From contig JAUXFK010000003.1 of the NCBI GenBank assembly GCA_030623035.1, forward strand, positions 1 through 35,910: a stretch of 35,910 nucleotides of DNA. Direction: 5' to 3'. Below the pieces are notes generated by a model. It was not told where the DNA came from, did not search any database, and worked only from the letters and a program-made list of their open reading frames with translations. Shown in pieces: positions 1,740 through 33,578 of the stretch. The position numbers were made by a program, and so were the translations under genes. The first letter of the stretch is position 1, and every line of letters begins with the position of its first letter. This DNA comes from Deltaproteobacteria bacterium. Its GTDB lineage: Bacteria > Desulfobacterota > UBA8473.

Positions 1740-1825
1740 GTAATTTTTTGCCATCTAAAGGAGCTAACGAGATTTTATGATTTTAATTGTCTTTTTCTTA
1801 CGATTTGAATTGTTTTGTTAAAGAG
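1740..1825. repeat. Degenerate family E repeat remnant
   Basis: 1740-1771 gtaattttttgccatctaaaggagctaacgag matches the reverse complement of 22171-22203. 1778-1825 resembles 22072-22125. Confidence 0.6.
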
Positions 1826-1846
1826 TTACTGAATTTCACATTTTTT

Positions 1847-1896
1847 ACACAATATATAGTATTTTAATTGACTTTTACTACATTATATTGTATATT
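1847..1896 (+). promoter_or_regulatory. sigma70 promoter for gyrB (TTGACT-17-TATATT) with two NrdR-box-like sites
   Basis: -35 at 1868-1873 and -10 at 1891-1896. acacaatatatagtat (1847-1862) and ctacattatattgtat (1878-1893) are 31 bp apart and resemble the NrdR consensus acaCwAtATaTwGtg. Confidence 0.6.
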
Positions 1897-2153
1897 GTTA
1901 ATTGATTTCCCTCAGCAAAAAAATCGGTCACAGCAAGGGCAATCACATTATAAGCCCGTGCAAAACTCGCGCCTGTTATGAGCGTAAAAAAAGAACAGTA
2001 TTGATCTTTGTAATTGAACAGTTACTAATGTATCTGTTCATACGCGTAACCATCAAGCAACACTTCTGTTCTTTCTTAACGCTCTATACACCGCTCAAAC
2101 AGTTGCACGCGTTATAATGTGACCGCCCTTGCTATGTTAACTCAATAAGCATT
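1894..2153 (-). mobile_element. MITE-like palindromic element, family A1
   Basis: Inverted homolog of 27615-27870. TIR-like ends attgttaattga / tcaataagcatt. Perfect 8-bp direct repeat tattgtat at 1886-1893 and 2154-2161. Confidence 0.85.
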
Positions 2154-2175
2154 TATTGTATATTATTACAAGCAA

Positions 2176-2286
2176 TGATTTTAATCGTTTTTGACGAAAT
2201 TTCTTGAGTTATCTTATTCCAGGATTCAAAATGAAAAGTGAAAATATTAAATTGTTTGAGTGAGCTTGTGAGCGATTTTTATTTTC
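2176..2286 (+). repeat. Degenerate repeat remnant (E-like segment plus TGTTTGAG...GCGATTT hairpin motif)
   Basis: 2176-2232 is similar to 22072-22125. 2253-2278 tgtttgagtgagcttgtgagcgattt lies inside tgaaaata...tattttca arms. Confidence 0.5.
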
Positions 2287-2299
2287 AAATAGGTGAAAT

Positions 2300-30460: not shown

Positions 30461-32155
30461 TCAACTGTATGCCTTCATGGCCTTTCGGTAGGCAATTCGC
30501 ACACTTGGAAACAGGCTTCTGGAAGCCTTTTTCAGGATATCTTTTGCTTCCTCTGTCTCCAATAAGATCAAAGCGATTGCTGCGCCATTCCGATGTGATG
30601 ATCTGGTATTACTGGGTATCCAAGCTTTTGTTAAAAGATGTTTTTTTAAAAACGGGGCTGAAACAGAGGAGCCACATTTCCCCAGGATTCTATAACAGGC
30701 CAGTAGGTGCTCGCGATCTGTGTTTTGCCCCACCTTTTTTTCAATATAGTCTAGTAACAGACTTTCTGCCAGCTCACTTTTTTGGCTGCCCATATAGTTC
30801 AACAATAATTGTCGAATCTCCTTGTTATCATCTTCGATTAATGGGAAAAGCTTCTTGAGCAACTGCGCATCTCTTTTGAGCAAATGTTTGAGTGCCTGTT
30901 TGCGTACCCCATAAGAAGAATGGTGGGTCATGCTTAGAAGTATCTGAGTAGGTTTTTCCCCCTCAAGCTGCCCCAGTACATAGACAAGCTTTTGGGCTGT
31001 AGAATCGTCTGATTGATTCATCAATAGCTCTAAGGGACGGATATCTTTCCTTGCCAAGACCTTGATGACTTCCATGACTTCTCTTTGTATACCTGGGGAT
31101 TGAATCTGAGGTAACATAGGACCAATTGTAAGAATCGCCCTTGAGGGAAGGAGTATGAGCAGCTGCTTTAAAGGCTTCATTTGGTTTTGATCAAGCATGT
31201 CCAAAGTGGACCAAAACCGTAAAAGAACGCCTAGGACATCGGGGGTTGTGGTTTTAACAAAAAAACTGTCTATTAAAGCAGACGCCCATGGGTTATTGGA
31301 TTTGTATGTTTTTTGGATTTTATATAATTCGTTAGTGAGTTTGAGCGCAAATTGAAATTCGGCTTGCTCAAGAGAATGTTGAAACTCATTTTTCAGAAAT
31401 TCTAAAACAATGATAAAGTCGGTTTTGGAACTTTGATCAGTGAGGAGAATTGTCAGCAATTCCAAAAGGTCTTGCCTAGTGTTATAATTCTCCTGAACCG
31501 CGATCATCTTTCGAAGTTTACTGACTTCTTCGGGTGTCAATTTCCAGAAGTTTTCTTCTTTGCTTTCTGGCGGTATCGCCATTGGAATGTCTTGTATCTC
31601 TTCCTGCTGGGCTGTGTTATTGCTTTCAGACTCACTTGCATGGAAAAGGGACAAATCGAGTGATAGTTCAGCCTCCCAATAAACATCTGTGGCTTGGTAC
31701 CGTATATGAGGAAAATCTGATTCCCAAAGCGCTGTTACCAAATCCCCTTCAGCCTCGTCTTGCGGATCCTTGTAATGGTCTATCGTCTTGATAAAGTCGT
31801 TGATTTCATCTTGGGATAGGCCTTCTCTTATCTCAAGCCATTGAATACCATCTCGAAAAAAGATGAAGGCCAATCCCTCTTTTTCAGGTGGGTCTTGATG
31901 CAAAACTTGGTTTTTATAGAGAAGCTGTTTCTTATTCACATCGATTTTTATGACATGGAAATTCTTCAATAAGTCATCGATATGGGCATTGACTTTGGCG
32001 ATAGAATTTTGACAAATGGTATGATTCTCAGGATAAAGCGAATAGTTTTTTAGGGCTATCAATACGAGCTGTATTACATCTCTGATTGCCCTAAGTTCTT
32101 TGCTTGTTGGAAAATTATCTAAAAGGTCTAAACCTCTACCCGCTGTTTTATCCAT
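30461..32155 (-). CDS. HEAT-repeat protein partnered with the HD-GYP gene
   Basis: N-terminal LYP.NH and DLVTALWE motifs with C-terminal HEAT-like repeats. Confidence 0.75.
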   Translation of the reverse strand: MDKTAGRGLDLLDNFPTSKELRAIRDVIQLVLIALKNYSLYPENHTICQNSIAKVNAHIDDLLKNFHVIKIDVNKKQLLYKNQVLHQDPPEKEGLAFIFFRDGIQWLEIREGLSQDEINDFIKTIDHYKDPQDEAEGDLVTALWESDFPHIRYQATDVYWEAELSLDLSLFHASESESNNTAQQEEIQDIPMAIPPESKEENFWKLTPEEVSKLRKMIAVQENYNTRQDLLELLTILLTDQSSKTDFIIVLEFLKNEFQHSLEQAEFQFALKLTNELYKIQKTYKSNNPWASALIDSFFVKTTTPDVLGVLLRFWSTLDMLDQNQMKPLKQLLILLPSRAILTIGPMLPQIQSPGIQREVMEVIKVLARKDIRPLELLMNQSDDSTAQKLVYVLGQLEGEKPTQILLSMTHHSSYGVRKQALKHLLKRDAQLLKKLFPLIEDDNKEIRQLLLNYMGSQKSELAESLLLDYIEKKVGQNTDREHLLACYRILGKCGSSVSAPFLKKHLLTKAWIPSNTRSSHRNGAAIALILLETEEAKDILKKASRSLFPSVRIAYRKAMKAYS

Positions 32156-32258
32156 TCGCCTATTTTTCCTTACTGGCTAAAATGACGGATTTGATTAAAC
32201 ACCCGTTCTACTTTTTTCTTAGACATCTTAAAGTTCTATTATGAAATTATTTCTATGC

Positions 32259-33059
32259 CTATCCTACCATGCTGTATCCGCCGCTTACGCTGAGGACCTG
32301 GCCGGTAATATGACCTGCTGCTTTATTTGAGCCAAGAAATACGACTGCATTGGCTATGTCCTGGGGCTTCCCAATCTTGCGAAGGGGGTATGCCTTTGAG
32401 ATCTTCTCCAGTTGTTCAGGGGTAAAGAAGTCTTTGGACTGCTTCCACATGCTTTTATCTCCAATCTCCACGTCTTCTGATGGCACTGTTACTCCAGGAC
32501 ATACAATATTTGCCCTTATCCCGTTACGACCGTTTTCCCTGCCGATGGTCTTCATAAAACTGTTAACAGCAGCTTTGACCCCACCATAGACTGCCTCTTT
32601 GAATTCACCCTGCCGACTGGCATCTGAACTAATGCTGACAATTGCCCCGCTTTTCTTTTCTATCATATAATCAAGGGCTGTTTTGGTACAGTTCAATACC
32701 CCCACGTAATTGATAGTTATGACTTTGTTCCAAAAATCTGGAGTTGTATCGACAAAAAGCATGAGGTTATCCCAGCCAACATTGTTGACCAAGACATCGA
32801 TCTGCCCGAACTCTTCGAAACCTTTCTTAAACATAGCCTGTACATTGTCCAGACTCGTTACATCACATTTGACTGTTATGGTCTTACCACCGGCATTTAA
32901 AGCATTGGCCTCTTTTACAACCTTTTCAGCCTGTTCTGTATCGACATCTCCGATCACCACATTTGCACCTTCTCTTGCAAAGGTTAAAGATATAGCCCGA
33001 CCAATATTGGATCCTCCTCCAGTAACGACTACGGTCTTTCCCTTATAATCTAAGTCCAT
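32259..33059 (-). CDS. SDR oxidoreductase (BadH-like hydroxyacyl-CoA dehydrogenase type)
   Basis: TGGGSNIG, NNVGWD, SSDA and YGGVK motifs. Start MDLDY follows aggagg. Confidence 0.88.
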   Translation of the reverse strand: MDLDYKGKTVVVTGGGSNIGRAISLTFAREGANVVIGDVDTEQAEKVVKEANALNAGGKTITVKCDVTSLDNVQAMFKKGFEEFGQIDVLVNNVGWDNLMLFVDTTPDFWNKVITINYVGVLNCTKTALDYMIEKKSGAIVSISSDASRQGEFKEAVYGGVKAAVNSFMKTIGRENGRNGIRANIVCPGVTVPSEDVEIGDKSMWKQSKDFFTPEQLEKISKAYPLRKIGKPQDIANAVVFLGSNKAAGHITGQVLSVSGGYSMVG

Positions 33060-33193
33060 TTTAAATCCTCCTTTTGATATGATTTTAGTAATAAATGCCT
33101 GTGCCTTTTTTATCAAGATAGGAGATGTGTGTCAATAAAATTATAGAAGAAAATTTTTGTAAATAAGCCTGTAATACTCCAAACCCCTTTTAC

Positions 33194-33222
33194 TTGACAA
33201 TGTGAGTCTATTTGGCTATATT
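33194..33222 (+). promoter_or_regulatory. sigma70 promoter (TTGACA-17-TATATT) toward otsA
   Basis: Near-consensus -35 and -10 boxes. Confidence 0.6.
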
Positions 33223-33341
33223 CCCTTTCATTGAACAGGTGTTCATCCAGCCGTCCCAACAGATTACTCTGTCTGGAAAGCTAAGCCCTGCCCAACTTGT
33301 CTTGACTTTCTTTTTTCTTTATAATAGTCTTTCAATTATTA

Positions 33342-33578
33342 CTACAGCGGCAGTTTTTACAAGCTGTTTGAGAGACCTCTTGACGAACATATATTGATTT
33401 TTTTGTCAATCGTTCTTAGTTCTGTGGAGCACAAAAATCTTAAGTTGTTTGAGGGCGATAGCCCGAGTTCTTAAGATTTTGCGCAGAGAACTTAGAACGA
33501 TTAAAAAACTCAATCCGAGTGAGGAAAGAGGCCTCTCGAACAGGCTGTTAGCGGGATTATCCGAAAGTGTCGCTGTAG
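33342..33578. mobile_element. Family F long palindromic MITE-like element
   Basis: Nested inverted arms ctacagcg/cgctgtag, tgtttgagag/ctctcgaaca, aatcgttct/agaacgatt, aaaatcttaag/cttaagatttt and apical gggc-gata-gccc. Flanked by tatta direct repeats. Confidence 0.82.

Follow-up and report, generated by a model that had tools for sequence, protein, structure and literature searches.

The window analysed here is a 35,910-nt stretch of DNA, contig C53 of a deltaproteobacterial assembly denoted G000 (268 contigs, 2,572,564 bp, 41.8% G+C, 85% complete). Its genes are housekeeping genes (parA, parB, gyrB, gyrA, gpsA, ispD, ispF, uppP, ftsK, lolA, hldE, gmk, argC, rpsI, rplM and otsA), and the spacers between them harbor non-coding repeat elements of 57-292 bp. 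These elements belong to families of MITEs (miniature inverted-repeat transposable elements) of unusual chimeric architecture, with one structured interior found under three unrelated end systems. Terminal inverted repeats (TIRs) combined with target-site duplications (TSDs), high copy number and empty orthologous sites in a related genome show that the mobility of these elements is transposase-driven.

Repeat elements of the window

The window contains 34 direct-repeat families and 45 inverted pairs. In a blastn comparison with G000, segments with as many as ~190 matches in the genome were found in 10 of the 11 spacers of more than 60 nt, the spacer at 32156-32258 being the sole one that matches only itself. 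A first-pass annotation, made from the letters alone, had stated that repeats fill most of the large spacers and disrupt no coding sequence, and both statements hold: no open reading frame (ORF) is interrupted by any window element. Among the listed ORFs of at least 80 aa, none coincides with the extent of an element, and an unannotated 91-aa frame (27714-27989) overlaps only part of the A1 copy at 27615-27870. A search of the window for tRNA and tmRNA genes found none. Orthologous spacers were taken from a genome of the same genus (G001), which is syntenic with the window at 84-90% nucleotide identity; a genome from another genus (G005) and a set of 13 genomes of the class to which the window belongs served for wider comparison. 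The elements, among which A1, A2, D, E, F, X and C possess TIRs, are as follows.

1740..1795, no strand assigned: mini-MITE of a ~57-bp family, degenerate A2-like TIR (GTAATT.TTT.GCC...); right boundary approximate
1894..2153, minus strand: A1-type MITE with A1 TIRs and hairpin core, in inverted orientation; TSD TATTGTAT at 1886-1893 and 2154-2161
4714..4988, plus strand: A2-type MITE, TIR GTAACAGTTTAGC / GGCTAAAATAATAC and hairpin core; TSD GTATAAAC / ATATAAAC
13672..13943, plus strand: end-mixed element, A2 left end, A2-type core and A1 right end; no TSD of its own
15799..15882, plus strand: segment B of the composite element BC; matches 18678-18761 in inverted orientation over 84 nt (98%)
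15878..16236, no strand assigned: C element, TIR of ~25-30 nt TAAAGTGCCTAAAGTGAGCTAAAGT, interrupted by the X insertion; intact copy at 18496-18684
15929..16079, plus strand: X element, with TIRs of A1 type and an unrelated interior of ~100 nt, lying within C; flanks ATATTCTA / ATATTATA
16765..16843, minus strand: S element, a short A2-ended derivative with the outer part of one core arm only
18470..18761, minus strand: composite BC element; 6 near-full copies with a common left flank
22052..22208, plus strand: E element, A2-like TIRs GTAACTGTTTAGCC / GGCTAAACAATTAC around a D-end fragment (22127-22177); TSD AAAACATC on both sides
25802..25943, plus strand: D-type MITE, TIR GTGTCCATCCAGAAATG; TSD TAAATA on both sides, one copy of it in G001 (empty site)
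27524..27602, no strand assigned: short D-family variant with degenerate left TIR; inverted matches to D of 80-93%, absent in G001; left boundary approximate
27615..27870, plus strand: A1-type MITE, TIR AATGGCTATTGAGTT and hairpin core; TSD TAATAAAT / TAATAAAA, one copy in G001 (empty site)
28963..29003, no strand assigned: solitary A1-type TIR fragment; 41-nt inverted match to 27615-27655 (78%)
33340..33580, plus strand: F-type MITE, TIR TACTACAGCG; TTAT on both sides, 6 copies of nearly full length in G000; the G001 site lacks it

Reading of the flanks confirms the clean duplications that had been reported at 1894, 22052 and 25802 and the near-perfect ones at 4714, 15929 and 27615. The duplication reported for the F element at 33342 is also present; its proposed 5-bp form, TATTA, gives way to a 4-bp form, the best fit being TIR TACTACAGCG with a TTAW duplication in 4 of 6 copies, 2 of which also fit TATTA. 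The TSD of the A2 element at 4714-4988 spans the gyrB stop codon, and this element has nine sister copies with exact 8-bp TSDs. Similarly, the stop codon of the neighboring gene (25943-26413) is supplied in part by the D element at 25802-25943, which abuts it. The element at 15929 indeed has A1 ends around a different core, as previously described, with the correction that it is nested within the C element; a second copy of X lies at C114, and a 150-bp copy with the exact TSD ATACCTTT is present in G001:C48. Over 1732-1810, the mini-MITE has 37-52 genome matches, including near-identical copies with TIR GTAATTGTTTAGCC at C93, C184 and C191, and the orthologous G001 site is devoid of this segment.

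Further similarities link the window elements to one another. The element at 1894-2153 has a 91-nt inverted match to 27615-27705 (90%), and S has inverted matches to both ends of the A2 element (98% to 4926-4988 and 90% to 4714-4742). The ends of E resemble A2 ends, as had been claimed, and its internal fragment is a 51-nt inverted match to a D end (92%); the region 21805-22237, including E, is missing from G001. The B segment at 15799-15882 has 10 genome copies at 80% of its length or more. The start of the composite BC element is placed near 18470 because its 6 near-full copies share the left flank; its ends are not clearly inverted and its TSDs are not established. G001 also carries BC at the orthologous site, shortened by an internal deletion of ~130 nt, so the copy at 18470-18761 is not a recent insertion. 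The A1 fragment at 28963-29003 falls in the N-terminal extension of the rplM ORF (28377-29006, minus strand), which, as listed, has 72 residues ahead of the L13 domain. Because this domain begins at residue 73, the extension is probably non-coding, with the true start downstream and the A1 TIR fragment in the spacer.

Copy number, target duplications and empty sites

The recurrence of the elements across the genome is borne out by tens to hundreds of matches for most families, which are distributed as follows.

A2: 377 genome matches, 30 copies at 80% length or more
D: 202 genome matches, 104 such copies
S: 158 genome matches, 45 such copies
E: 195 genome matches, 2 such copies
BC: 31 genome matches, 10 such copies
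F: 17 genome matches, 7 such copies
X: 3 genome matches, 2 such copies

With up to 2 mismatches, the A1-end motif occurs 84 times compared to 3 times in the shuffled genome, the D motif 243 times compared to 0, and the core motif 97 times compared to 1; 12-nt F motifs at the same stringency show no excess over the shuffled control. In a census of TSDs in G000, each end motif was paired with its nearest inverted partner, and exact flanking duplications were counted. An exact 8-bp TSD was found in 9 of 34 A1 TIR pairs and 16 of 46 A2 TIR pairs, and an exact 6-7-bp TSD, mostly of the form TANNTA, in 27 of 66 D TIR pairs. An exact 8-mer match would be expected by chance with a probability of ~1.5e-5 per pair.

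The alignment of orthologous spacers reveals single, unduplicated targets in G001 at 1894 (a single TATTGTAA), 4714, 25802, 27524-27870 and 33340, that is, five empty insertion sites. Because these sites are empty and G001 carries the same families in many copies elsewhere, the elements have moved after the split of the G000 and G001 species. The claim that TIRs combined with target duplications attest to transposase activity is thus sustained by the TSD counts, the copy numbers and the empty sites.

The nine families account for 68,155 of the 2,572,564 bp (2.65%) of the assembly and for 11.5% of the DNA outside ORFs of at least 150 aa. Only 3.2% of the repeat bases fall inside such ORFs, although these make up 77.6% of the genome. 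The window is enriched in the nine families, at 6.9% compared to 2.65% for the assembly. The insertions can be placed tightly against genes, as in the case of the A2 insertion behind the gene for a 1406-aa protein, which duplicated the start codon of the following gene. Elements also insert into each other, the cases of nesting being X in C, A2 in A1 at C182, and X in a remnant of an IS66-family insertion sequence (IS).

In contigs of four public DNA runs over 1-20000, no insertion polymorphism was seen, as these contigs stop inside elements. The C-element TIR zone at 15883-15920 (TAAAGTGCCTAAAGTGAGCTAAAGT) has a summed contig depth of ~5,000-11,000 in three cold-seep or sediment metagenome runs, in which unique window DNA has a depth of ~1-10; other, more numerous organisms in the samples must therefore carry this repeat in great abundance.

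The shared hairpin core, its ends and their parents

The A1 and A2 elements contain a common interior of ~205 nt that folds as one long hairpin. The core of the A1 copy (27634-27847) has a predicted fold of -96 kcal/mol (z -12.0), and the opposite strand one of -76.3 kcal/mol. The first-pass annotation had recognized this common core with different ends; added to this is the finding that the 13672 copy is itself end-mixed, A2 on its left and A1 on its right. G000 contains 71 full-length core loci: 12 are flanked by A2 ends and 9 by A1 ends on both sides, and 2 are hybrids with A2 on the left and A1 on the right; another 10 show other combinations, with one or both ends recognized, 14 touch contig ends, and 24 were not oriented by the first motif. 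The 34 loci that remained unoriented after a second step (including those 24) were read individually. All those not cut by a contig end have A1- or A2-type ends; in some of them the core is oriented the other way, and in one an A2 element is nested in A1. Among the full-length G000 loci not cut by contig ends, no core without A1- or A2-type ends was seen.

The core extends beyond this genus. In G005, it is present at 83-87% identity between a third TIR, A3 (GGCATCCTTCATA), with 8-bp duplications CGTAAAAG, TTTTATTT and CTTATTTC. Exact matches to a 23-mer of the core were found in at least 90 stretches, from no fewer than 12 metagenome-assembled genome (MAG) records, labelled, among the matches listed, Desulfobacterales, Desulfobacteria or Thermodesulfobacteriota. 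Of the 13 genomes from the class of the window, only 4 contain the core, which would place most of these MAG records beyond this class. A contig (L088) binned as an archaeal MAG (Candidatus Methanolliviera) carries one core copy with ends of A3 type, which may reflect mis-binning or transfer. Of the 102 core copies whose flanks are long enough, 33 combine an exact 8-bp duplication with a TIR matching at 9 or more of 14 positions, and the dominant TIR everywhere is A2-like, GTAWYAWTTTAG. In the tree of these 102 cores, A1-ended cores form one clade of 20 (support 1.0), and A3-ended cores form one clade of 5 (0.986) nested in an A2 clade (0.964). Because the A1 and A3 cores each form a single clade, two end-replacement events would suffice for the data. 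The core arms do not serve as IS ends in any case examined: 69 arm pairs are 50-75 nt apart, and host genes lie between the arms of the 5 pairs that are 0.7-4 kb apart.

The end-mixed copy at 13672 coincides with a break of synteny. In G001, the gene for the 1406-aa protein is directly followed by a small regulator-like gene. In G000, the regulator-like gene is found where contig C92 ends; ahead of it are the loop, right arm and A2 right end belonging to a core element, and the 8 bp AAATATGT at this half are the same as the 8 bp ahead of the A2 left end at 13672. Because both halves carry these 8 bp, they derive from a single A2 insertion that was split; its left half now leads into an A1 right end followed by the block of genes with ispD. 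In G001, the ispD block is on another contig, and the 13672 copy marks the synteny breakpoint. A mis-join in the assembly graph seems unlikely because the A2/A1 junction shares only ~9 nt between the two element types.

These observations speak against the further proposal of the first-pass annotation, a system in which a structured cargo is carried by different IS-derived ends: the A1 and A3 cores are single clades, cores without ends are not seen in G000, core arms do not act as IS ends, and a rearrangement breakpoint coincides with the end-mixed window copy. Ends and cores are indeed interchangeable, as stated in that annotation, and this is best explained by shared transposases, two rare chimera events, nesting and recombination between ordinary MITEs.

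A parent IS was found for the D ends. In G000:C120, the D TIR continues into a 410-aa transposase fragment, ended by the contig edge, with DUF772 and DDE_Tnp_1 domains and a score of 384 bits against the NCBIfam ISNCY model NF033593 (cut-off 325). In G001:C215, a ~1.69-kb element with a 472-aa open frame, 63% identical to this fragment, is bounded by GTGTCCATCC... and ...GGATGGACAC; this full IS copy has no clean duplication. D has 11-20 nt of the termini in common with the IS and no internal sequence. Because the same TIRs bound an ISNCY-family IS in G001, D is an ordinary MITE of such an IS, differing from ISNCY elements (NF033593) in that it shares their termini only, not their interior. 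Within ISNCY, the ISDol1 subgroup, typically with 6-7-bp duplications, would be the point of comparison for D; in the literature searched on ISDol1 and ISNCY, no duplication lengths were found.

The A2-type ends are probably derived from an IS66-family IS. In G001:C48, A2-type TIRs bracket a 1.2-kb degraded IS66-family remnant, which contains the nested 150-bp A1-ended element with its exact duplication ATACCTTT. As described in PMC11946415, IS66 terminal repeats begin with GTAAGCG and are accompanied by 8-bp duplications; the A2 TIR is GTAACAGTTTAGC, not GTAAGCG, whereas the GTAA start and the 8-bp TSD are alike and consistent with this description. The G001 remnant and the IS66 end at G000:C60 have no homologous tails, no A2-like TIR pairs 1.2-3.6 kb apart occur in 80 loci from other MAGs, and a search for an intact IS66 with the A2 TIR found none. 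In G000, the A1, A2 or D pairs more than 500 bp apart all enclose host genes or are chance matches, with 0 transposases.

An IS256-family IS was considered as the parent of the A2 and E ends, given an E-like end 200 nt upstream of an IS256-family transposase at G000:C47, and was rejected: comparison with C203 and G002:C437 places the start of the IS later, with its own TIR GAGATATWRTCAAAWGTTGTGT. This IS (417-aa transposase, NCBIfam 326 bits; G000:C47:11739-12989 and C203:15514-16110) is present in at least 2 copies in G000 and as a fragment in G002, and is unrelated to the MITE ends.

Mechanism, alternatives and related systems

The structure of the core was analyzed in an alignment of 65 copies, with pairs predicted by RNAalifold. 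Of the 29 pairs, 18 show compensatory double changes, and the positions of the basal stem show 3-4 pair types. The upper stem and an asymmetric internal loop (CTGTYTGAGC in one arm, CGAGTTT in the other) are nearly invariant. The other-genome copies, 61 of the 65, were picked by exact match to the left upper-stem 23-mer, so the left-arm half is fixed by choice and its invariance is inflated; the upper stem's right-arm half and the motifs of the internal loop are nearly invariant across the 65 copies. The loops and outer segments of the core are unconserved. On the motif strand of 37 copies, G.T-type mismatches outnumber A.C-type mismatches 171 to 33, counts behind which lie few independent events because the copies share descent. 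The orientation of the core relative to flanking genes shows no bias, with 11 co-oriented and 11 anti-oriented cases in the 22 tandem contexts among 43 oriented copies; a strand-specific RNA role was considered and found no backing in this comparison. The 22 public runs listed for the window include no RNA run. The hairpin is maintained, and the cause may be a DNA-level role in transposition, repair within the palindrome, or another process.

We consider it likely that the families are non-coding MITEs moved in trans by IS transposases, and that their modular appearance stems from shared TIRs, nesting, rare chimeras and recombination. Under this scenario, the elements encode nothing, and DDE transposases of full-length ISs elsewhere in the genome or the community would recognize their TIRs. 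Insertion would duplicate a target of fixed length: 8 bp for A1 and X; 8 bp for A2, E, S and the mini-MITE; 6-7 bp (TANNTA) for D; and, in the case of F, probably 4 bp. The insertions would persist almost solely in AT-rich spacers, often against stop or start codons, several unrelated interiors would use the TIRs of one transposase, and elements would insert into each other. The ~205-nt interior of a widespread A2-type MITE would rarely have gained other TIRs, namely, A1 in this genus and A3 in another, each chimera being then amplified, and recombination between dispersed copies would yield end-mixed elements and chromosome rearrangement. The long hairpin would be kept by compensatory change, most likely as a fold-back interior that aids transposition or persistence as DNA.

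Several observations weigh against this scenario. Chimera formation alone leaves unexplained both the contrast between the invariant upper stem and internal loop and the covarying basal stem, and the mismatch asymmetry, the latter coming from related copies with few events. On the side of the parents, the IS66 link consists of one degraded copy without a target duplication that has only 13-14 nt in common with A2; the A2-type TIR is not found in two other IS66 copies of the order, and a metagenome scan with the 124-aa frame of the remnant yields no relative. The adjacency to IS256, a situation similar to that of IS66, proved to be a false lead. The search for autonomous ISs, which succeeded for D, found none for the A1/X or F ends: the 101 A1 TIR matches in G001 include no +/- pair at IS distance, and none of 16 solitary A1 TIRs inspected is followed by a transposase. 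Finally, the contigs of the four public runs on 1-20000 that stop inside elements provide no bridge across 13672.

The alternative that addresses the structural observations is that the core is a selected functional module (a fold-back chassis, structured DNA or RNA, or a protein-binding site) captured by unrelated ends. The hairpin would then be portable, raising the mobility or retention of whichever element contains it, captured for that reason by at least three end systems and spread horizontally among seep-dwelling Desulfobacterota beyond one class. The occurrence of the same core in three TIR contexts, the 18 of 29 compensated pairs, the near-invariance of the right-arm upper stem and internal-loop motifs, the strand asymmetry in both mismatches and folding energy, and the reach of the 23-mer beyond the class all fit this view. 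However, only two capture events are needed, the core shows no orientation bias, the loops and outer segments are unconserved, and the invariance is inflated by the selection of 61 copies. Moreover, Rfam 15 covariance models searched against the whole window give 0 matches at the gathering score and 0 at E<=1, and the complementarity of the arms could also be maintained by DNA-level repair within the palindrome. On balance, we regard both the module and its horizontal spread as unlikely.

It is very improbable that the hairpins resemble REP/REPIN or PATE elements and that the transposase from the IS200-like Y1 gene at 25943-26413 moves them in single-stranded form. This Y1_Tnp gene (Pfam 69.9 bits) adjoins the D element and has one copy in G000 and one in each of 8 of the 13 genomes, in a conserved neighborhood, as is typical of RAYTs, and the G.T strand asymmetry of the hairpins could be accommodated. 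However, Y1 transposition makes no fixed-length target duplications, and all families checked here have TIRs with such duplications. In addition, the neighboring D copy is absent in G001 where the gene is present, the core occurs in G002 without the gene, the gene occurs in G003, G004, G006, G007 and G008 without the core, and the gene reaches only 26 bits with the NCBIfam RAYT model, whose cut-off is 80. The Y1 gene itself (minus strand), with HUH and Tyr motifs and 54-78% amino acid identity across the 8 genomes, adjoins the hldE-gmk block wherever neighbors were listed; it looks like a domesticated, vertically inherited gene.

An origin of the repeats as immobile relics, or as artefacts of assembly in a fragmented MAG, is scarcely credible: the number of contigs, the 85% completeness and the breaks of public-run contigs inside elements would fit, but the exact duplications around dozens of copies, the precise empty sites in an independent genome and the presence of the same families in several independently assembled genomes refute this for the elements as a whole and leave it only for the 13672 junction.

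Trans mobilization of MITEs, the explanation that we favor, has bacterial precedents, among them the Correia elements of Neisseria, Nezha and Chunjie. Like bacterial MITEs in general, the elements described here are small, non-coding, multi-copy and intergenic, with TIRs, TSDs of fixed length, hairpins and mobilization in trans; different here are the coexistence of several families at high density, the ~205-nt interior with three unrelated TIRs and the lack of a sequence match to any family available for comparison. The REP/REPIN-RAYT system is similar in its abundant intergenic hairpins and in the single-copy, vertically inherited Y1 gene, present here in the window, and differs in that the elements of the window have TIRs and target duplications, and the gene is not ancestrally flanked by them and does not co-occur with the core. 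IS200/IS605-derived PATE elements have subterminal hairpins, no TIRs or TSD, and insert 3' of a short motif, unlike all families examined here, which have TIRs and duplications. Mosaic non-autonomous elements that arise by recombination or by enclosing foreign DNA and stay mobile are reported for the Tn3-derived TIMEs (PMC4133298) and for miniature sequences in Pseudomonas syringae (PMC3189936). In these cases, one transposase system reportedly brackets variable DNA, whereas here a constant interior has different ends. No report of MITEs in this group, or of one interior with different TIRs, was found in full-text searches of the literature, ISfinder being outside this comparison.

For annotation, the elements matter in that they break assemblies at their copies and, lying against stop and start codons, therefore affect contig continuity, gene-start calls and inferred regulatory regions. 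For genome evolution, the coincidence of an end-mixed element with a breakpoint relative to the sister species offers a concrete case of MITE-mediated rearrangement. The persistence of one interior under three end systems, with compensatory evolution, permits a tractable test of whether such an interior is neutral filler or contributes to transposition, and this conserved, covarying hairpin is the feature that merits experiment.

Two further features of the window stand apart from the repeats. The lolA-hldE spacer contains a G+C-rich unique segment (21822-21970) that has no Rfam match and folds no better than shuffled sequences (z -1.06 and -0.67); the orthologous G001 site is without this segment. 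The 1406-aa protein (9444-13664) contains two acyl-CoA dehydratase activase (BcrA/BadF-type ATPase) domains, and this duplication of the activase domains accounts for a 59-nt direct repeat (80%) at 9828 and 10779 within its gene.

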